A stretch of 64,000 bases of DNA from Desulfatiglandales bacterium (GTDB lineage: Bacteria > Desulfobacterota > DSM-4660 > Desulfatiglandales > Desulfatiglandaceae): NCBI GenBank assembly GCA_963666345.1, contig OY762721.1, positions 192,001 to 256,000 of the forward strand, written 5' to 3'. Shown piece by piece: positions 29,058 through 39,268 of the stretch (position 1 is its first letter; every line of letters begins with the position of its first letter). The notes beneath the pieces were generated by a model. The model did not search any database, had not been told where the DNA came from, and was given only the letters and a program-made list of their open reading frames with translations. The position numbers and the translations under genes are program-made.

Positions 29058-29233
29058 ATTAATCAACCTGCTGTCTTAAAAATACTCTTCTGCAGATAAG
29101 TCCGCGTCGGCAGGATCGGTCCGTTTTATCTGAATATGCCTGACAACAATGATCTGTTATTGCTCCTGACGGAGGAAATATTTTGACTAGGCAAGGTTTA
29201 ACAACTATATTTGCTCCCAAGGAGCTCATAGCT

Positions 29234-30295
29234 ATGAATAAAAAATATGGATCAAGTTTTTTTCTCATACTTCTACTCTGTTCTCTCCTCCTGTTGATGG
29301 GGCTTTTCCAGACCTATATCTCGGCAATAGTCTTTGCCCTGCTCATTGCAAGTGTATTCAATCCGATGTACCTGAGGTTAAATAAATTTCTGGGGAACAG
29401 GGAAAACCTTGCGTCGGCCTCCATGCTGGTATTCATTCTACTTGTGCTCATTATTCCCACTGTATGGTTCGTTGGAACCCTCTCCAATGAGGCATATGAT
29501 TTTTATGACCGTACCCGCGATTCGGTTTCTCTTGCTCAGATAAAGGAGACGCTGAACAGCGATTCCATATGGGTTGAAAGGGCAAGAAATCTCTCGGAAA
29601 AGGCGGGGATCGAATTCACGCCTGAATCGATTGAAAAACTTGCGGCTGGCCTTGGAAAACAGGTGGGCTTTTTTCTCTATAAACAGTTGAGTTCCGTTGC
29701 GTCCAACCTGTTCAATTTTCTCATCCACTTTTTCATGATGATGTTTACCATCTTCTATCTGTTCCGTGACGGGGCAAGGTTAAGGGAGTATATTACCCGG
29801 CTTCTGCCTGTGCCTGAAGAGCAGGTGGCAAAGGTCATAAAAAAATTCAATGAAATGGGGAGTTCCCTTATTTTTGGAAACGGCATCTCAGGTATTGTTC
29901 AAGGGATACTCGGAGGTATAGGCTTTGCCGTTTTCGGCCTCGGTTCCCCCCTCCTCTGGGGTTCCGTACTCGCCTTCATGGCCTTTTTGCCTATAATCGG
30001 TGCCTCGATCGTCTTTTTCCCCGCCACGGCCATACTCGTTTTTCAAGGTAAGATGTCCGTGGCCATAACTTATCTGCTCTACAACATGGTCTACAGCTCT
30101 GTGATAGAATATATAATAAAACCCCGCCTGATCGGACGGGGCATGGAGTTAAACGCGCTGTTGGTTTTCATCGGAATAATCGGAGGAATAAAACTTTTTG
30201 GAATTCTGGGAATTATTTACGGTCCGTTTATCATAACCATTTTTCTAACCCTTGCAGAGATCTACAGGATTGAATACAAAGATCAGACAGGCTAG
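29234..30295 (+). CDS. AI-2E (PerM/YdiK) family transporter
   Basis: Hydrophobic profile, FLPIIGA, IIKPRLIG, FGILGIIYGP; AAGGAG RBS before ATG 29234. Confidence 0.9.
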   Translation: MNKKYGSSFFLILLLCSLLLLMGLFQTYISAIVFALLIASVFNPMYLRLNKFLGNRENLASASMLVFILLVLIIPTVWFVGTLSNEAYDFYDRTRDSVSLAQIKETLNSDSIWVERARNLSEKAGIEFTPESIEKLAAGLGKQVGFFLYKQLSSVASNLFNFLIHFFMMMFTIFYLFRDGARLREYITRLLPVPEEQVAKVIKKFNEMGSSLIFGNGISGIVQGILGGIGFAVFGLGSPLLWGSVLAFMAFLPIIGASIVFFPATAILVFQGKMSVAITYLLYNMVYSSVIEYIIKPRLIGRGMELNALLVFIGIIGGIKLFGILGIIYGPFIITIFLTLAEIYRIEYKDQTG

Positions 30296-30339: not shown

Positions 30340-30834
30340 ATGGACCCCAAAAAGATGCTCCAAGATAAGAAAATTTTGATAGTTGATGATGAAGTGGATA
30401 TCCTTGAGTTTCTTGGAGAAATCCTGGATATGTGCGATATTGACAAGGCTTCGGAGTTTCATGAGGCAAAGAATCTTTTGGAATCAAATAGTTACGACGT
30501 CACCATCCTGGATATAATGGGAGTACGCGGATATGAGCTGCTGGAAATCGCCCAGGCCCGGGATATCCCCGCTCTCATGCTGACGGCCCATGCGATTTCA
30601 AAGGAAAATCTGAAAAAATCGGTTGAAAAGGGTGCAAGCTATTATGTCCCAAAAGACGAGATAAACAATATTGATATCTATCTTTCAGACATACTCGAGG
30701 CGAGGGAAAAGGGCAAAAATGTATGGATAAAATGGTATGAGCGCATGAGCGGCTTCTGCAACAGAAGGTTCGGGCCGGACTGGAGAGATGAAGAACCTGA
30801 ATTCTGGGACGTGTACCTGAAAAATGACTCCTGA
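30340..30834 (+). CDS. Response regulator receiver protein with a Trp-rich C-terminal tail
   Basis: IVDDE, LDIMG, LTAHA, YVPK. Confidence 0.88.
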   Translation: MDPKKMLQDKKILIVDDEVDILEFLGEILDMCDIDKASEFHEAKNLLESNSYDVTILDIMGVRGYELLEIAQARDIPALMLTAHAISKENLKKSVEKGASYYVPKDEINNIDIYLSDILEAREKGKNVWIKWYERMSGFCNRRFGPDWRDEEPEFWDVYLKNDS

Positions 30835-30931: not shown

Positions 30932-31972
30932 ATGAAGCAGCAAAGTGTGGGAATCACGATAACTCAGCACATCCTTAATCAGCAAAGGAAAAACCCGGAG
31001 GCAACAGGGGCCTTTACAACTCTTATTTCTGAGCTGATTGTGGCTGCCAAGGTTATCTCACGAGAGGTAAACAAGGCGGGGCTGGTTGATATACTCGGAC
31101 CGACGGGAAAAATAAACATCCAGGATGAGCAGGTGCAGAAACTGGATATCTTTGCCAATCAGGTAATGATTGAAAGGATGCAGCACATCGGCGAGCTCTG
31201 GTGCATGGGTTCCGAGGAAGACCCCGATCTCATCGAAATCCCCTCCAGGTATCCTAAAGGCGAATACATCCTGGTGTTTGACCCGCTGGACGGTTCCTCA
31301 AACATAGATGTAGACGTCAGCATCGGGACGATCTTCGGGATCTACAGGAAAAAGGAGAATAACGATTCCGGAGAACCGCTTCTCGAGGATGTGCTTCAAC
31401 CCGGTATTGAGCAGGTAGCCGCCGGCTATTTCATATACGGATCAAGCACTATAATGGTTTACACCACCGGAAAGGGAAACGGAGTGCATGGTTTCACCCT
31501 TTTCCCCGATGTGGGAGAATTTCTGCTTTCACACGAAGATATCAAGATACCTGAAAGGGGAAGGATCTACAGTGTAAACGAGGGAAATTACGCCCACTGG
31601 GATGAAAAGACAAAGGCACTCATTCAATATTTCAAGACCAAGGACAAGGAAACCAGCAGGCCCTACTCATCCCGTTACGTAGGCAGCCTGGTAGCGGACT
31701 TTCACAGGAACCTCCTCAAGGGAGGCATATTCATGTACCCGGCCGATCTGAAGGACCCCAAAAAGCCGACAGGAAAACTGAGGCTCATGGTTGAGGCAAA
31801 CCCGCTTGCCTTTATCGTTGAGGAGGCCGGTGGATATGCCAGCGACGGCCATGGCCCCATACTGGAAATAGAGCCTTCGCAGCTTCATCAGAGGGTCCCC
31901 TTGTATATCGGAAGCAAAAAGGACGTGGAAGTGGCGGAATCCTTCATAGGCGGCGGAAAACAGCCTATTTGA
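30932..31972 (+). CDS. fbp: Class 1 fructose-1,6-bisphosphatase
   Basis: QKLD, SEE, FDPLDGSSN, RYVGSLVADFHR, GKLRL..EANPLA. Confidence 0.97.
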   Translation: MKQQSVGITITQHILNQQRKNPEATGAFTTLISELIVAAKVISREVNKAGLVDILGPTGKINIQDEQVQKLDIFANQVMIERMQHIGELWCMGSEEDPDLIEIPSRYPKGEYILVFDPLDGSSNIDVDVSIGTIFGIYRKKENNDSGEPLLEDVLQPGIEQVAAGYFIYGSSTIMVYTTGKGNGVHGFTLFPDVGEFLLSHEDIKIPERGRIYSVNEGNYAHWDEKTKALIQYFKTKDKETSRPYSSRYVGSLVADFHRNLLKGGIFMYPADLKDPKKPTGKLRLMVEANPLAFIVEEAGGYASDGHGPILEIEPSQLHQRVPLYIGSKKDVEVAESFIGGGKQPI

Positions 31973-32597
31973 CGGAATAGAACATCATTTCATTGAGCTC
32001 AAGGCAGGTGAGGCTCCCCCCGTACACCGCTCCGGTGTCGATCCCGATCTTATTTTTTTCTATAAGGGGTTTTTCAAAGGGGGTATGGCCGAAAATGACC
32101 TGTTTTCCAAAATCATGATCCGAGTAAATGAAGGGATCCCTTATCCACAACATATCCTGCGGGTCCTGTTCCTTGAGCCGCCTTCCCGGCCTGAAACCGG
32201 CGTGAACCACGATATGCCGTTCCAGTTCGATATACATCTTCAGGGATCCATAAAAATTGAGGTGGTCTTCAGGGACAGAAAAGCCTTTATCCCGGCTGTA
32301 GCTTCTTATCGTGCGCAGCCCGCCGTTCATAAAATAGAGGTCCCTGTCTCTTCCCGACATATACTCCAGAAACATCGATTCATGGTTCCCCATGAGGCAC
32401 TCTATGTTGGGTGAATCCCTTATGAGATCCAGTATGAAATTGACCACCTCCTTTGAATTTTCTCCCCTGTCGATATAATCACCTACAAATATCAGGCTGT
32501 CCATTGCCGGGTCCCAGTCGATCTTTTCCATCAGCCGCATCAATGGATCAAGGCACCCATGGATATCTCCAACAACGAATGTCCTGTTTTCTTTCAT
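31965..32597 (-). CDS. PPP-family (calcineurin-like) metallophosphoesterase
   Basis: GDIHG, GDYIDRG, GNHE, VHAG, FGHT, IDTG. Confidence 0.92.
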   Translation of the reverse strand: MKENRTFVVGDIHGCLDPLMRLMEKIDWDPAMDSLIFVGDYIDRGENSKEVVNFILDLIRDSPNIECLMGNHESMFLEYMSGRDRDLYFMNGGLRTIRSYSRDKGFSVPEDHLNFYGSLKMYIELERHIVVHAGFRPGRRLKEQDPQDMLWIRDPFIYSDHDFGKQVIFGHTPFEKPLIEKNKIGIDTGAVYGGSLTCLELNEMMFYSVK

Positions 32598-33529
32598 CGG
32601 AACCTGAAGATGATTCGCTTTCTTTCCCTTGTATCCAGCCTCTTGAGACCTGCCTCTCCGGCGGCGGCCACCGCCTCCCTGAACTCATACGACCTGAGCC
32701 GCCTGTCTATGTATTCATCCTCCCCCGCCCTGCCGCATGGTCTGTACTGATCCATGACATTGAGGTAGGTGCCGACAGAGATCTCTTCCGCGATAAAATC
32801 CGTTACATACCTTGATCCTGAGATCCCGTTGGGCATGACTAGGTGCCTCACAATAAGTCCCGTTTCGGCTAACCCCGCTTCATCCACCTTAAGATCCCCC
32901 ACCTGACGGTGCATCTCTTTCACCGCATCGATTGCATACCGCCTGTATCGGGGAGCATCACAGTACCTGAGTGCCCATTTGTCGTCCCAGAATTTAAAAT
33001 CAGGCATGTAGATATCAAAGATATTTTCCAGCAGCCTCAGCGTTTCAACCCGTTCATAGCCTCCGCAGTTATAGACCAGGGGCAGTTTGAAGCCGTTATC
33101 AACAGCCGGCAAAAGGGATTCCAGGATCTGGGGTACTACATGGGTGGGGGTGACAAAATTGATATTGTGACAACCCATCTCCTGAAGCCTCATCATCATA
33201 TGTGCCATCTGTTCAGGCCCCACTTCAATCCCTTCGGACAGATGACTTATCTCATAATTCTGACAAAACATGCACATGAGATTGCAGGAAGCGATGAAAA
33301 TGGTTCCCGATCCTAATCTTCCCACCAAGGGAGCCTCTTCGCCGAAGTGCGCGTCAAAGCTTGCCACGCGAGCCCTTCTTCCTGTCCGGCAGAAACCCGT
33401 TTCATTTTTCAGTCTGTTCACACCACACCTTCTGGGGCAAAGATGACACGATTTCATCATATCGGTTGCCACCGAGATACGGCGGGACAACTCCCCGCTT
33501 TCCGCCAGTTTCAGGTATGAGGGTTTCAT
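32594..33529 (-). CDS. Radical SAM protein, PflX-like
   Basis: CHLCPRRC, HFGEE, CNLMCMFCQN, HNINFVTP, DIYMPDFK; start set at ATG 33529. Confidence 0.9.
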   Translation of the reverse strand: MKPSYLKLAESGELSRRISVATDMMKSCHLCPRRCGVNRLKNETGFCRTGRRARVASFDAHFGEEAPLVGRLGSGTIFIASCNLMCMFCQNYEISHLSEGIEVGPEQMAHMMMRLQEMGCHNINFVTPTHVVPQILESLLPAVDNGFKLPLVYNCGGYERVETLRLLENIFDIYMPDFKFWDDKWALRYCDAPRYRRYAIDAVKEMHRQVGDLKVDEAGLAETGLIVRHLVMPNGISGSRYVTDFIAEEISVGTYLNVMDQYRPCGRAGEDEYIDRRLRSYEFREAVAAAGEAGLKRLDTRERKRIIFRFR

Positions 33530-33548
33530 GTCGTTTGGATCTTGAAAC

Positions 33549-33588
33549 AAAAAACCCCCTAAAAGAATATATCCTTGCAGGGGGTTCG
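33549..33588 (-). terminator. Intrinsic terminator after the YccA-family gene
   Basis: Minus-strand AACCCCCTG...TAGGGGGTT followed by a T run. Confidence 0.6.
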
Positions 33589-33621: not shown

Positions 33622-34326
33622 TTAGTCTCTGGAAGTTCCGAAAATCCTCAGCAGCATCAGGAAAAGGTTTATAAAATCGAGATAAAGTGAAAGAGCCCCC
33701 AGGATCGCCCCTTTTCTCATCACCCCCGCCTCGAGATCCCCAGGCCGGCTCATTGCCATGTTTTTTATCTTCTGGGTGTCATAGGCGGTCAGACCCACGA
33801 AAACGATAACCCCGATATAGCTTATTATCATATGCATGGCACTGCTTCTTATGAACACGTTGACAAGCGAGGCTATTATTATGCCTATGAGCCCCATCAT
33901 TACAAAACCGCCCAGAGAGGTGAGGTCTTTTTTGGTGGTCCATCCGTATATGCTGCATCCCACGAATGTCCCTGCGCATATGAAGAAAACGCTGGCAATG
34001 GACGCCCCGGTATACGCCAGGAATATAAAAGACAGCGTCACTCCGTTAAGTGCCGAATAGAGGATAAAAAGGGACGTTGCCGTACCGGCGCTTATCCTGT
34101 TTATCATCCCACTTATTGAGAATACAAGCCCCAGTTCGGCAAAGATTAATATAAAGAAAATAAAACGGTTCCCATATATAAGGTTGAGCATAGTCTGACT
34201 GCCGGCCACATAAAATGCGATAAATCCCGTCAGTGCAAGACCTATTGCCATCCAGTTATACACGCTTCTTACAAAATCGTTTACAAGGGCATCTGTCCCA
34301 GCTCTTGTTATTGAACCTTCAACCAT
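33622..34326 (-). CDS. Bax inhibitor-1/YccA family membrane protein
   Basis: Seven TM segments, AYDTQKIK, GALSLYLDFINLFL. Confidence 0.94.
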   Translation of the reverse strand: MVEGSITRAGTDALVNDFVRSVYNWMAIGLALTGFIAFYVAGSQTMLNLIYGNRFIFFILIFAELGLVFSISGMINRISAGTATSLFILYSALNGVTLSFIFLAYTGASIASVFFICAGTFVGCSIYGWTTKKDLTSLGGFVMMGLIGIIIASLVNVFIRSSAMHMIISYIGVIVFVGLTAYDTQKIKNMAMSRPGDLEAGVMRKGAILGALSLYLDFINLFLMLLRIFGTSRD

Positions 34327-34817: not shown

Positions 34818-36065
34818 CTATTTATCTATCTTTTCAAGCCGTTCAACCCTTTCAAGAAGCGGGGGATGGGAATAGTTGAACAGGACATACAGGGGGTGTG
34901 GCCTGATATCTGCAAGATTATCCTTTGCCATTTTTTTAAGGGCGGAAGAAAGCATTTCAGGCCCGCCTGCCGCCCGCGCTCCATAATAATCGGCCTCTCT
35001 TTCAAATCTCCTGGACAGGGCCATACTGATCGGCGACAAGAAAAAACCGACAGGCCCCCAGATCACCCCTACCAGAAATAAACCCACGTATGCCGATGTT
35101 TCCGAAAAACCGAAGGCCTCATACATCCCCTCCCATTCAATCATCAATGAGGCGGCATAGAAAAGGACAAGCGTACTGAAAGAGCTGATAAGAAGCTGTT
35201 TCAAGATATGTCTTTTCTTTAAATGACCGATCTCATGGGCAAGTACGGCAGCTATTTCGCCCACGCTGTGAGAGCTTATCAGGGAATCAAAAAGCACTAT
35301 CCTCTTTGCCTTTCCAAGACCTGAAAGATATGCGTTGGTGTGCCTGCTCCGTTTGGAGGCATCCATTTGAAAAATCCCCTTGAGACCTATCCCCTGTCTT
35401 GCGGCCAGATCTTCCACCTCCTTTCTCAGATTTTCATCTTCAACAGGAGTGAATTTATTGAAAATAGGTGCAATAACAGTAGGATACAGTACCGTAACAA
35501 GGAGCTGGAATAAAATAAACAGGACCCATGCCCATATCCACCAGTTTTTCCCCGAATATTCAAGAATAACCAGCACCAGACAGAGAAGTCCTCCTCCCAG
35601 AACCGCGACAATCAGCACCCCCTTGATCTGATCCATTACCCAGGTCAGGCGGGTGGCCGTATTAAAACCGTGCCTGTCCTCTAAGACAAAACGATTATAG
35701 TAATCAAAAGGCATGCCGGCACAGACCATGATCACGGATGGAAACGCGAAAAAAAGGACCCCTGAAAGGATGTACGGAAGCCCTTTTGTCAACCCCCGGA
35801 ACCAGGGAAGCAACTCTGTAAGAATGATCAGGAGGAACAGTGTCTTTGACACGGCAGAGTGAAACATGTTGAAACGGCTCCGATCCCTGCTGTAACTGGA
35901 TATCTTGTTTAGCTCCGCCCTGTCTATATAACCCCTGAACTGCTCCGGGGGTTGCTCACTGAATTTTGCGCAATATCCGGAATTAATAAACTCTATAAAT
36001 AGTTCTCCGAGCCCGCTTACCGCAAACAGGAAAAGATACGCTATCAAAACGGGATTTGCATTCAT
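34818..36065 (-). CDS. M48 family (Ste24-like) zinc metallopeptidase
   Basis: NAY..G.G..KRIVLFD, HEIGH, EREAD, YSHPPL. Confidence 0.93.
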   Translation of the reverse strand: MNANPVLIAYLFLFAVSGLGELFIEFINSGYCAKFSEQPPEQFRGYIDRAELNKISSYSRDRSRFNMFHSAVSKTLFLLIILTELLPWFRGLTKGLPYILSGVLFFAFPSVIMVCAGMPFDYYNRFVLEDRHGFNTATRLTWVMDQIKGVLIVAVLGGGLLCLVLVILEYSGKNWWIWAWVLFILFQLLVTVLYPTVIAPIFNKFTPVEDENLRKEVEDLAARQGIGLKGIFQMDASKRSRHTNAYLSGLGKAKRIVLFDSLISSHSVGEIAAVLAHEIGHLKKRHILKQLLISSFSTLVLFYAASLMIEWEGMYEAFGFSETSAYVGLFLVGVIWGPVGFFLSPISMALSRRFEREADYYGARAAGGPEMLSSALKKMAKDNLADIRPHPLYVLFNYSHPPLLERVERLEKIDK

Positions 36066-36292
36066 ATGGGTATTGACATAAGCTTTTCATGAAGATTTAC
36101 TGTTTATCGCCCCGCAACCGCCATTTTGTCTGAGACTCGAAAGATTAGTATGATACGGCAAAGTGATCAAGAAGTCACGTGAGGTTCATAGATCACCTCG
36201 GCAACCAGGGCGGGGCAAAATCATGGGGTTGATCGACTCCAGGGATTGAAACATCGACCCCTTTTACCCACTCATATCGGAGAAGCGGTATA

Positions 36293-37510
36293 ATGGACAG
36301 CGAAAGGCTTTTTATAGTAATGATGGGACTGCCTGCCAGAGGCAAATCTACCCTTGCAAACAAACTGAAGGAAAATCTTGTCCGGGATTCGATAAAGACC
36401 AGGATCTTCAATAACGGTGACCTGCGCAGGAGACTCATCAAGCGGGATACGTCCTATCCGGAATTCTATGACCCGGACAACTATGAGGCGGCGACATTCA
36501 GGGAGAAGATAGCCCTCATAAACATAAACCGCGCAAAAAAATTCCTGGAGCATCGCGGCGATGTGGCGATACTGGATGCGACCCATGTAAGCAGAAAGAG
36601 GAGACAAAGGGTCACCGGCCTGTTGAAAGATCACCCGATCCTGTTTATCGAGTGCGTCAACATGGACCCTATGATCCTTGAAGCCAGCATAGAAAGGAAG
36701 ACCACCCTGCCTGAATTCACTCACCTGTCAAAGGCAGAGGCAAGAAAGAGTTTCAAGGAAAGGATAAGGTACTATGAGCGCATATACAGCCCCTTGGGGA
36801 AGGAAACAAACTATGTCCGGCTTGATACCCTCAACAACCGGATAGAGGAGGAGGAGATAAAAGGCTCAATCCCCTTTTACGACCGCTTGAGGGATTTTCT
36901 TGTCACGGACAGTGTAAAGAACCTGTTTCTTATAAGGCATGGGGAGACATATTTTAATCTTGAAAACAGGATAGGCGGAGACTCCAGCCTTACGGAAACC
37001 GGGGTTGCTCAGGCCAGAGCCCTTTCCAGGGCTTTCAGCAGCCGGAAGATCCCCTTTATTTTTACAAGTGAAAAAAAGCGAACCATTCAAACCGCCGAAC
37101 CTATAAAGGCGCTTCAGAGTAAGTGCTCAATCATCGGCCTAAAGGAATTCAACGAGATAGACAGCGGGGTCTGCGAATGCATGAGTTATGAGGAAATCAA
37201 CCTGAAGATGCCGGAGATCTATCATGCCAGAAAAGTGGACAAATACAATTACATATATCCGCAAGGCGAAGGATATATTTCCATGAAAAAGAGGGTCTAC
37301 CTCGGAATAAAGAAGGCCCTTTATCTCAGCGGCAACGCCAGCAATATCATGATAATAGGGCACAGGGCGGTAAACCGCATGATCCTTTCACACTTCCTAT
37401 ACAAAAGGCAGGAAGACGTGCCCTACATATACGTGCCCCAGGACAAGTTTTATCATGTAGTGGCCACGCAGGACAAAAAGCTTTTCCAGCTCAAGGCCTA
37501 CGATATCTGA
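36293..37510 (+). CDS. Bifunctional 6-phosphofructo-2-kinase/fructose-2,6-bisphosphatase-like protein
   Basis: Kinase: VMMGLPARGKST, FNNGDLRR, DATH..R.RR. Phosphatase: RHGE, RIGGD, NEIDSGVCE.MSYEEI, DKYNYIYPQGE, GHRAV. Confidence 0.9.
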   Translation: MDSERLFIVMMGLPARGKSTLANKLKENLVRDSIKTRIFNNGDLRRRLIKRDTSYPEFYDPDNYEAATFREKIALININRAKKFLEHRGDVAILDATHVSRKRRQRVTGLLKDHPILFIECVNMDPMILEASIERKTTLPEFTHLSKAEARKSFKERIRYYERIYSPLGKETNYVRLDTLNNRIEEEEIKGSIPFYDRLRDFLVTDSVKNLFLIRHGETYFNLENRIGGDSSLTETGVAQARALSRAFSSRKIPFIFTSEKKRTIQTAEPIKALQSKCSIIGLKEFNEIDSGVCECMSYEEINLKMPEIYHARKVDKYNYIYPQGEGYISMKKRVYLGIKKALYLSGNASNIMIIGHRAVNRMILSHFLYKRQEDVPYIYVPQDKFYHVVATQDKKLFQLKAYDI

Positions 37511-37535
37511 ACAGCCCCCTGACCGGGAACCGCAA

Positions 37536-37700
37536 CTAATCGAACAGCCCCTTTACCATGTACAATTTTCCTTCCCGATGGTTCAGGTACATTACAATGC
37601 TCCTGAGCGGTTCAGGCTTGATCCCCGTCTCTTCCATTATTGTTTGAGCGTCTTTTTCAAGACGTATAAGCTGTTTTACCTTGTTTATATTCCAGTTCAA
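37536..37700 (-). CDS. Small hypothetical protein (54 aa)
   Basis: Manual: TTG start after AAGGGGTGG; MNWNINKVKQLIRLEKDAQTIMEETGIKPEPLRSIVMYLNHREGKLYMVKGLFD*; 14 nt after the synthetase stop. Confidence 0.65.
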   Translation of the reverse strand: MNWNINKVKQLIRLEKDAQTIMEETGIKPEPLRSIVMYLNHREGKLYMVKGLFD

Positions 37701-37714
37701 AAATCCACCCCTTT

Positions 37715-39268
37715 TTATTTCCTGCTTTCTTTAAAAAAGCGTTTCACATTATCGTTTAATACCTTTCCCATGCTGTTTCTGGGAAGCTCGTCAACAAATA
37801 TTACCTGTTTGGGGCACTTCCACGGCTGAAGATCTTTCCTGCAAAAATCCATGATCTCCTCCGGCGCGGCCTCCCCGCCCTGTTCCAGGACTACTGCCGC
37901 ACATACCATTTCACCCCACAGTTCATCCTCGATGCCTACTACCGCTGAATCGGCCACACCCTCAAATCGGGCGATTACGGACTCAACCTCCTTGGGTGAA
38001 ACATTCTCGCCGCCTGATATGATAATGTTCTTTATTCGGTCTGTAAGATAATAATAACCATCCTTATCCGCCTTTGCCATATCACCCGTTCTGAACCACC
38101 CATCCCTGAAGGCACTCTCGTTTTCCTCGGGCCGGTTCCAGTACCCCGGGCTTATCCCTTCTCCCTTGAGCCATATTTCACCGGTCTGTCCATGCTCCAT
38201 ATCCACCAAGGTCTCGGGATTCACCAATCTTACCTCAACTCCGGACATGGGCAACCCTATGGATCCGGCCTTTTTGATGCCTCTGACCGGATTGGAAAAA
38301 TTCATGCCCGTCTCAGACATGCCTTCACGTTCGACAGGTTCCTTCCCGAAAGTCGTCTTTATAAGCTCAAAGAGCCTCAGTGAAAGAGGGGCGGACCCTG
38401 ATGCGATAAGCCTTAAATTCTCGTAGTTCCCTCCGTTATCCTCTGCGTATCCAACCAGCCTTTCATACATGGAGGGTACACCCATGCAAAACGTGCAGGC
38501 AGTTCCTCCGTAGCCCTCGGACAGGACTTTTGAAACGACCTCACGGGAAAACCTGTCAAGCATGATTACCCCGGCGCCTGCGAGAAGCGGTGTATGAAGG
38601 GCGAAGCAAAGCCCATGCACATGAAATATGGGCAGCGCGTGGCAGATAGTGTCCGATTCGCCGATTTCCCACGCGGACATGACCTTTTGTGCATCGTGAA
38701 GCAGGTTTTTATGTGTAAGCATCGCCCCTTTCGGCCTTCCCGTAGTGCCGGAGGTATAGATTATAAGCGCCGTCTGCTCAGGTAGAAGCTCAATATTGGT
38801 CAGTTCCGGTCCGCAGGCACACCCGAAAGAGGCCCATATCTCTTTTTCACGGCCCTTTTCAAAAATAAGCCTGTTTACACAGCCGCCTATCCTGTCGATC
38901 ACACGGCCGGCCGAGTCCCCGCATATTACCAGACAGGGGCTGCAGTCAGGCACCAGGAATGACAATTCATGCTCAGTCAAAAGGGGATTAAGAGGAACGG
39001 ATACGGCCCCGATCGCCTGGGCCGCCAGATGCGCAAACAAGAAAAAAGGCTCCTTTTCCATCAGAAGCATTACCCGGTCCCCTTTTCTTACGCCGAGCCC
39101 ATCCAGTATCCCCGCCATGCGCCTGGTATGATCATACATATCCTGATATGAATATTCCGATTCCTTTTGCCCGTCTCTCAAAAACACCATCGCGGTTTCC
39201 CCGCCCTTTGTTCTGAACGTCTCAAAGAGCGCCCTCACGAGGGTATCTGCTTTTAATATGTCTTTCAT
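37715..39268 (-). CDS. AMP-forming acyl-CoA synthetase (MatB/malonyl-CoA synthetase-like)
   Basis: YTSGTTGRPKG, LPIFHVHGL, SGSAPL, EREGMSET, GWFRTGD, LPRNSMGKV. Confidence 0.88.
   Translation of the reverse strand: MKDILKADTLVRALFETFRTKGGETAMVFLRDGQKESEYSYQDMYDHTRRMAGILDGLGVRKGDRVMLLMEKEPFFLFAHLAAQAIGAVSVPLNPLLTEHELSFLVPDCSPCLVICGDSAGRVIDRIGGCVNRLIFEKGREKEIWASFGCACGPELTNIELLPEQTALIIYTSGTTGRPKGAMLTHKNLLHDAQKVMSAWEIGESDTICHALPIFHVHGLCFALHTPLLAGAGVIMLDRFSREVVSKVLSEGYGGTACTFCMGVPSMYERLVGYAEDNGGNYENLRLIASGSAPLSLRLFELIKTTFGKEPVEREGMSETGMNFSNPVRGIKKAGSIGLPMSGVEVRLVNPETLVDMEHGQTGEIWLKGEGISPGYWNRPEENESAFRDGWFRTGDMAKADKDGYYYLTDRIKNIIISGGENVSPKEVESVIARFEGVADSAVVGIEDELWGEMVCAAVVLEQGGEAAPEEIMDFCRKDLQPWKCPKQVIFVDELPRNSMGKVLNDNVKRFFKESRK

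Follow-up and report, generated by a model that had tools for sequence, protein, structure and literature searches.

In teaching, fructose-2,6-bisphosphate (Fru-2,6-P2) is presented as a signal with which eukaryotes alone regulate glycolysis and gluconeogenesis, and it binds the active site of fructose-1,6-bisphosphatase (FBPase). The enzyme that makes and degrades it, 6-phosphofructo-2-kinase/fructose-2,6-bisphosphatase (PFK-2/FBPase-2, or PFKFB), also has a bacterial family, which is already known and was recorded about twenty years ago. A passage in PMC9721465 credits Rider 2004 with a PFK-2/FBPase-2 homologue from Desulfovibrio desulfuricans. Here, we describe a PFKFB gene of a Desulfatiglandales bacterium (GCA_963666345.1), a marine sediment bacterium of the sulfate-reducer type. 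The DNA analysed, referred to below as the window, is a stretch of 64,000 nt (contig OY762721.1, positions 192,001-256,000 of the forward strand) and falls inside one 4.16-Mb contig. Judged by its sequence, the gene product is a real, intact and ordinary-looking member of the known bacterial family. What is new is how far this family has spread, that it almost never occurs without class I FBPase, that a neighbourhood with the class I FBPase gene (fbp) is kept within the order, that in one lineage the gene adjoins a phosphofructokinase (PFK) gene, and that the family has reached Scalindua.

The two domains and their active sites

The gene and its two halves are placed as follows in the window:

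36293..37510, + strand: PFK-2/FBPase-2 (PFKFB-like) gene, a stop-free open reading frame of 405 amino acids (aa) and a stand-alone transcription unit
36299..36838, + strand: kinase half, residues 3-182, with the P-loop GLPARGKS and R45, R46, R70, D95, T97, R103, R104, K136, R157 and Y161
36923..37480, + strand: phosphatase half, residues 211-396, with R215, H216, N222, R263, E288, Y299, R313, K317, Y328, H357 and R362

Both domains are recognised by Pfam in the same chain, 6PF2K (PF01591) over residues 3-182 (E 4.3e-37, 128 bits, cut-off 27) and His_Phos_1 (PF00300) over residues 211-396 (E 2.6e-34, 119 bits, cut-off 21.7). When the protein was compared to the PDB sequences with phmmer, human PFKFB3 ranked first (E 2.3e-61, residues 7-383); next came the isozymes of rat testis and of human liver and heart. 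The PFKFB chains scored E 1e-57 to 1e-61 and the FBPase-2 domain 1e-31, while other phosphatases reached E 1e-9 or worse. As a match between sequences, the assignment to the PFKFB family is far beyond chance. A preliminary description had called the product a eukaryote-type PFK-2/FBPase-2 on the strength of its motifs, had proposed a profile search for the two domains and an alignment of the substrate-binding residues, and had noted a class 1 fbp about 4.3 kb upstream. The two-domain assignment is borne out by the Pfam and PFKFB3 matches above, and every motif that it listed is present in the 405-aa translation: GLPARGKS at residues 12-19, DATHVSRKRR at 95-104, RHGE at 215-218, NEIDSGVCECMSYEEI at 287-302, DKYNYIYPQGE at 316-326 and the second His at H357.

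On alignment with PFKFB3 the substrate-binding residues are likewise in place. K18 and all the single residues given above for the kinase half are identical to those of PFKFB3, with S19 aligned to a Thr, and the checked kinase positions are the same in 124-125 of 125 bacterial clade members; S19 is the exception (Ser in 121, Thr in three and Ala in one). The phosphatase residues given above align to PFKFB3 and are kept in 125/125. The roles ascribed to these positions (Walker A and B, the fructose-6-phosphate (Fru-6-P) cluster, the catalytic triad and the holders of the 6-phosphate) we take to be those of the PFKFB literature. Because the checked residues are invariant despite an overall identity among these 125 members of 63% in the kinase half and 75% in the phosphatase half, both active sites look intact, and the two halves seem to be competent catalysts and subject to purifying selection. 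Position 263 is Arg in our protein and Ser in PFKFB3, a replacement which presumably accounts for the weak phosphatase of the latter. Other positions are less strictly kept. The present protein has H at position 98, where 121/125 members and PFKFB3 have N, and R at position 101, which is variable in the clade (Leu in 61/125, Arg in 16); E218 is shared by 120/125 members, and at D230 91 have Asp and 34 Asn. Next to the second His, at R358, 118 members have R and seven have Q, and PFKFB3 has Q.

An AlphaFold2 model built from a 50-sequence alignment (predicted local distance difference test score, pLDDT, 93.8; predicted template modelling score, pTM, 0.89) resembled human PFKFB2 (5htk_B) in a VIA-align comparison with a Z of 34.5 over 391 residues. 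Its phosphatase half could be laid over the rat liver FBPase-2 domain (1fbt) with a Z of 27.3 and a root-mean-square deviation (rmsd) of 1.7 Å over 188 residues. Nothing but the catalytic core is present: the protein begins five residues ahead of the first beta strand and has neither an N-terminal nor a C-terminal tail.

A GGAG precedes the ATG at 36293, and a start there leaves the P-loop fold with its first beta strand and agrees with the N-termini of the relatives. The public gene call P0307 is 396 aa long and begins at Met10 of the 405-aa frame (36293-36322 region); of the two, the 405-aa start is the more likely. The reverse strand across 36293-37510 is riddled with stops.

Distribution and association with class I FBPase

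A word-indexed protein search returned 1802 matching proteins. The best 120 of these are about 400-470 aa long and 67-72% identical to our protein, save one near-identical sequence at 98%, and those that carry names are proteins of Desulfobacteraceae, Desulfatiglandaceae or metagenome-assembled genomes (MAGs) of Desulfobacterales. Matches at E 1e-100 or better were found in 24 of 41 close genomes, and an even sample of the phylum gave a strong match in 51/401 genomes from 11 families. By a scan of species genomes, at least 592 loci (of 600 stretches listed) were confirmed as relatives, and 263 clusters scored E 1e-30 or better in an exhaustive search of representatives. The best 80 of the confirmed loci, to which counts of related loci refer below, come from Desulfatiglandales, Desulfobacterales, Desulfohalobiaceae, Desulfovibrionaceae and Candidatus Scalindua/Brocadiaceae, the last at 60-64% identity. 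The family is thus common in this phylum, where it is widely and vertically conserved, and the earlier statement that bacterial homologues are sporadic does not hold against these counts of genomes, loci and proteins.

The phylogeny was drawn from 60 rows by a quick IQ-TREE search, with support from the Shimodaira-Hasegawa-like approximate likelihood ratio test (SH-aLRT) only and midpoint rooting of the drawing, the root itself not being inferred. The clade of the present protein (12 rows, support 100) is monophyletic, has a stem 1.34 changes per column long, lies outside every eukaryotic group in the tree, and is 30-37% identical to the eukaryotic enzymes. An AT-rich marine metagenome clade and one single sequence were placed between it and the eukaryotic representatives, and a Myxococcota pair among the eukaryotic sequences. 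What can be said from this topology is that the bacterial clade is no recent import from a crown eukaryote. The label "eukaryote-type" therefore stands as regards domains and motifs, which are as in eukaryotic PFKFB, and falls if taken to mean recent import from eukaryotes, in view of the long branch of its own and a GC content like that of the surroundings.

The Scalindua copies are nested within the Desulfobacterota copies (support 93), and the gene has likely been transferred from Desulfobacterota into these marine anammox Planctomycetota, between phyla that share anoxic sediments. The loci concerned are L055, L066, L067, L082 and L086 (Ca. Scalindua) and L061 (Brocadiaceae); the neighbours of the Scalindua copies are Maf, Na/H exchanger and MltA genes, with no sugar genes among them. 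Two further sequences deserve mention. P0127, a member of the clade at 43% identity, is labelled as a Nanobdellota archaeon MAG, which may reflect faulty binning or yet another transfer. Genome G137 encodes a 643-aa PFKFB-like protein (L105:630-2561) with a 237-aa N-terminal extension; at 32% identity to ours and with a higher 6PF2K score of 218 bits, it belongs to a different, more eukaryote-like clade, contamination being possible.

The association of PFKFB with class I FBPase, which the preliminary description had suggested looking for in relatives, is pronounced. Class I FBPase was present in 50/51 PFKFB-positive and 166/350 PFKFB-negative genomes of the 401-genome sample and, by a hand count of genera in the same sample, in 32/33 positive and 108/222 negative genera, although such counts overstate the strength of the association because related genomes are not independent. 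The sole positive genome in which class I FBPase was missed is 80% complete. The anammox order was considered as an independent case. Eight of its 61 genomes carry PFKFB and class I FBPase is found in 8/8 of these, but the test is weak since 36/53 genomes without PFKFB have the enzyme too.

In the window, fbp ends 4321 nt ahead of the PFKFB start, as had been noted. Its product matches PF00316 with 226 bits, PF18913 (FBPase_C) with 155 bits, the NCBIfam class 1 fructose-bisphosphatase equivalog NF006778 with 480 bits (cut-off 368) and the E. coli FBPase 2gq1 at E 1e-97, which confirms the class proposed earlier. The genome holds a single PF00316 match and no match to the GlpX and FBPase_3 profiles, fbp being the only dedicated FBPase found. 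From fbp to the PFKFB gene the features are:

30932..31972, + strand: class I fructose-1,6-bisphosphatase gene (fbp), the proposed target, by Pfam, NCBIfam and PDB matches
31965-32597, - strand: metallophosphoesterase gene (Pfam), found in 39/80 related loci (tblastn)
32594-33550, - strand: radical SAM gene (Pfam), found in 37/80 related loci (tblastn)
33622-34326, - strand: Bax1-I membrane protein gene (Pfam), found in 50/80 related loci (tblastn)
34818..36065, - strand: M48 (CAAX-type) peptidase gene (Pfam), divergent neighbour of the PFKFB gene
36066..36292, no strand: intergenic region between the M48 peptidase and PFKFB genes, 227 nt, with GGAG 9-14 nt ahead of the ATG

In 34 of the 80 related loci, fbp is found upstream of PFKFB on the same strand, at a distance of 1182-5356 nt (median 3565). 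If only the 45 informative loci are considered, those whose upstream sequence extends to 6 kb or more, the count is 28/45. The metallophosphoesterase, radical SAM and Bax1-I genes accompany the fbp/PFKFB pair in relatives, and the genes in between (metallophosphoesterase, radical SAM, Bax1-I, M48) vary while the pair persists; in locus L045, Bax1-I alone separates fbp and PFKFB, which are 1182 nt apart. From the co-occurrence and the neighbourhood kept in the order, the tie of PFKFB to class I fbp gains indirect support.

Other features of the surroundings are less constant. The M48 peptidase gene adjoins PFKFB in just 18/80 related loci (tblastn), and on its other side the PFKFB gene is convergent with a gene for an AMP-dependent ligase. 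Directly upstream of fbp and on its strand are a stand-alone response-regulator receiver gene (30340-30834), kept in 19/80 related loci, and an AI-2E family transporter gene (29183-30295), kept in 29/80. The radical SAM gene at 32594-33550 gave no NCBIfam match. A radical SAM gene accompanies PFKFB in two arrangements. In this order it lies upstream on the opposite strand; in Desulfohalobiaceae it shares the strand of PFKFB, lying directly upstream in L062 (8808-9890) and L071 (8999-9946) and being located on that strand by tblastn in L079. A scan of 35900-37900 for promoters and terminators gave matches at or below the chance level (two promoter-like matches against a shuffle mean of 2.6), and no regulatory site could be named in that interval. 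One marine-sediment metatranscriptome run (X15) yielded small contigs 93-97% alike over fbp, the radical SAM gene and Bax1-I, and one 130-nt piece within the PFKFB gene (37032-37161, four differences). These contigs derive from a relative and not from this strain, and such libraries can contain DNA, so that they are at best a weak hint of expression.

A proposed Fru-2,6-P2 circuit and its alternatives

If the conserved residues act as in the animal enzymes, the N-terminal kinase half with its P-loop would use ATP to phosphorylate C2 of Fru-6-P, giving Fru-2,6-P2, and the C-terminal phosphatase half would hydrolyse Fru-2,6-P2 via a phospho-His216 intermediate. The balance between the two would set the Fru-2,6-P2 pool, which would restrain the class I Fbp encoded 4.3 kb upstream at its active site and perhaps activate a PFK. 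In this way carbon might be directed either into gluconeogenesis and the laying down of glycogen or, from stored glucan, into glycolysis. Since the core is devoid of the phosphorylated tails of animal isozymes, the two halves would have to be controlled by metabolites that act on them or at the level of transcription. Both activities are inferred from the data presented here, as are Fru-2,6-P2 as a metabolite of these cells, an Fbp sensitive to it and the switch in physiology: an enzyme with both activities is probably what the gene encodes, while for the whole proposal, with Fbp as receiver of Fru-2,6-P2, we see the scales as evenly balanced. The idea of a circuit is plausible and is strengthened somewhat by co-occurrence and synteny.

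The genomic setting is a suitable one. With fbp, the PFK genes, glycogen synthase and glucan phosphorylase all encoded, the genome has both directions of the step between Fru-6-P and fructose-1,6-bisphosphate together with a glucan store. Desulfovibrio gigas builds up polyglucose in large quantities as a reserve, according to a passage in PMC4287179, and such a reserve would give the proposed switch a purpose in this group. In other lineages, too, PFKFB has neighbours from sugar-phosphate metabolism, which count in favour of the proposal: transketolase and ribulose-phosphate epimerase genes in three Desulfohalobiaceae loci, and the PFK gene in G085 described below.

A number of observations weigh against the proposal. 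At the level of the protein, no NCBIfam model is passed, the best being the CobC equivalog with 85 bits against a cut-off of 163; we read this as reflecting a family that has no model of its own rather than as counting against membership. Although each domain of the structure model fits, the whole-chain rmsd to PFKFB crystals is 15-16 Å and the Foldseek template modelling (TM) score about 0.5, from which it follows that the domains are oriented differently towards each other. The model is a monomer only and the crystals are head-to-head dimers, and the difference may be an artefact of monomer modelling. Our literature search, which had supplements outside its scope, found no published assay of any bacterial PFK-2/FBPase-2 member. 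Nor can a sensitive Fbp be told from an insensitive one by its residues, since Fru-2,6-P2 binds the active site of FBPase. Class I FBPase is moreover widespread regardless of PFKFB, being present in 216/401 genomes of the phylum and in 36/53 PFKFB-negative anammox genomes. As for the linkage, fbp and PFKFB are separated by four opposite-strand genes and can form neither an operon nor a common transcript. Linkage is commoner at higher identity, with 21/24 loci linked at 65% identity or more and 7/21 below 65%, and the fbp neighbourhood was not found in the Scalindua, Desulfovibrionaceae and Desulfohalobiaceae loci. Of 14 loci taken from other genomes of the phylum, 13 were scanned (all but that of the same-order genome G029); fbp linkage was found in none of these 13, and most of the PFKFB neighbourhoods were unconnected with sugar metabolism. 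Confined as it is to one order, the linkage may be inherited gene order only.

Three other explanations of the data were considered. The first accepts that Fru-2,6-P2 is made and degraded and holds that its main receiver is a PFK, as in plants, either the PPi (pyrophosphate)-type-looking PFK-B or one of the two ATP-type PFKs; we think this unlikely. Besides its single 6PF2K gene the genome has three PFK-family genes, one of which passes the ATP-PFK equivalog NF005301 and one an ATP-PFK subfamily model, while PFK-B (L013, 391 aa) passes no NCBIfam PFK model and carries the motifs GGDDT and PKTMDND, which we take to mark PPi-type use. In genome G085 (L102:6710-7867) a PFK gene 61% identical to PFK-B, its orthologue, is situated 90 nt upstream of PFKFB on the same strand, although such adjacency was seen in only 1/14 sampled neighbourhoods. 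Orthologues of PFK-B (E 1e-140 or better) occur in 20/51 PFKFB-positive and 22/350 negative genomes and are thus enriched among PFKFB carriers without being required; even at E 1e-90 or better a match is missing in 27/51 of the positives. Plant PPi-PFKs are activated by Fru-2,6-P2, but the characterised bacterial PPi-PFKs are all non-allosteric, both according to passages in a 2025 PFK review (PMC12203962). The presence of the PFK family as a whole was also compared with that of PFKFB and proved uninformative, the family being near-universal (356/401 genomes; 51/51 positives and 305/350 negatives), so that co-occurrence says little about a PFK as receiver. As a separate observation, the 367-aa PFK at L012:1492-2595 has the unusual motifs GGFDS and PKTIDRN and still passes the ATP-PFK subfamily model, while the other two PFKs carry GGD(D/G)T and PKT(I/M)DND.

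The second explanation, which we find improbable, is that the substrate of the bacterial clade is a different phosphosugar or ketose phosphate, or that one half alone is active, mainly the phosphatase, with no Fru-2,6-P2 signalling in either case. It could draw on the long stem (1.34 changes per column) and the mere 30-37% identity to the eukaryotic enzymes, on H98 in place of the N of most members and PFKFB3, and on the R beside the second His in 118/125 members where PFKFB3 has Q. Histidine phosphatases of related fold have quite different substrates, and public annotation mostly reads "histidine phosphatase family" or "PhoE/predicted kinase". The neighbours of PFKFB in Desulfohalobiaceae include pentose-phosphate genes, with transketolase (tkt) downstream in L062, L071 and L079 and ribulose-phosphate epimerase (rpe) beside it in L071 and L079. 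Against this, the residues aligned with the Fru-6-P and Fru-2,6-P2 contacts are kept in 124-125/125 members in both halves, the two halves are fused and full-length across families, which is hard to explain with one of them idle, and the gap in phmmer scores between PFKFB chains (E 1e-57 to 1e-61) and other phosphatases (E 1e-9 or worse) is wide.

By the third, equally improbable to us, the enzyme is genuine and its proximity to fbp has no function. The block, in the order AI-2E transporter, response regulator, fbp, metallophosphoesterase, radical SAM, Bax1-I and PFKFB, would be inherited gene order within one order of bacteria, and Fru-2,6-P2 would have a role unrelated to FBPase. The separate transcription units of fbp and PFKFB are consistent with this, as are the loss of linkage in Scalindua, Desulfovibrionaceae, Desulfohalobiaceae and the further phylum genomes scanned beyond the order, and the retention in the block of the unrelated Bax1-I and radical SAM genes as often as fbp or more. 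Mere inheritance is however at odds with a pair that persists while the intervening genes come and go, down to Bax1-I alone over 1182 nt in L045, and with the 50/51 genome-wide co-occurrence, which is independent of linkage. A recent foreign origin of the PFKFB gene was considered and rejected, its GC content of 0.47-0.48 being like that of its surroundings.

The family is a widespread and strongly conserved, seemingly minimal bacterial version of the enzyme that makes and degrades Fru-2,6-P2, nearly always accompanied by class I FBPase. If Fru-2,6-P2 is made and Fbp or a PFK is controlled by it, the central carbon metabolism of sulfate reducers, of syntrophs and of anammox bacteria of the sea, organisms of importance to the cycling of carbon, sulfur and nitrogen in sediments, would gain an allosteric layer, and the tail-less core could be used to study how the balance of kinase and phosphatase is set. 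To specialists the gene itself is no surprise, and the bacterial use of Fru-2,6-P2 becomes testable with one expressed protein.

Comparison with known systems

The origin of eukaryotic Fru-2,6-P2 signalling would be reopened as a question should the proposal be true. Such signalling may have arisen, or already worked, in anaerobic bacteria of the Desulfobacterota type as a switch on class I FBPase between gluconeogenesis and the consumption of stored glucan, the eukaryotic enzyme being descended from such a gene. We regard this as a long shot. The old monophyletic bacterial clade is compatible with such an origin, as are the short bacterial and metagenomic clades which the midpoint-rooted tree places between that clade and the eukaryotes, and the origin would fit models with a deltaproteobacterium-like partner in the first eukaryotes.

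The single-domain histidine phosphatases, namely the alpha-ribazole phosphatase CobC, PhoE/YhfR, the phosphoserine phosphatase PspA and dPGM, have a fold and an RHG...H catalytic core in common with the C-terminal half (Z 22-25). The partial NCBIfam matches are all under their cut-offs. None of these enzymes has a fused 6PF2K kinase, and they match at E 1e-9 or worse, compared with 1e-31 for the FBPase-2 domain.

Among bacterial proteins, the Desulfovibrionaceae copies belong to the same phylum and the same clade and are 57-58% identical to ours; they are without the class I fbp neighbourhood, which the Desulfatiglandales-like lineage of the present gene keeps. More distant are the proteins of Myxococcota MAGs (the P0184 cluster) and of the marine metagenome clade (P0179, P0234 and others), which are about 400 aa long with two domains and no tails and are 28-33% identical. 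The Myxococcota pair branches among the eukaryotic representatives and the marine clade between the clade of our protein and the eukaryotes.

The animal enzymes PFKFB1-4 (PFKFB3, 6iby and 2axn; PFKFB2, 5htk; liver, 1k6m; testis, 1bif) have the same two domains in the same order and are about 32-35% identical to the present protein over residues 7-383. Shared between them are the P-loop, DAT/RxRR, KRI..Y, RHGE, NEID..GxCE and DKYxYxYPxGE motifs and the second His. The bacterial protein differs in being without the regulatory tails that carry the target sites of protein kinases, its alignment beginning at residue 36 of the PFKFB3 chain and its chain stopping shortly beyond the phosphatase core, and in having Arg263 where PFKFB3 has a Ser. 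In the monomer model its domains also appear to be oriented differently from those in the animal PFKFB crystals. Unlike the animal enzymes, it belongs to a separate, long-stemmed clade.

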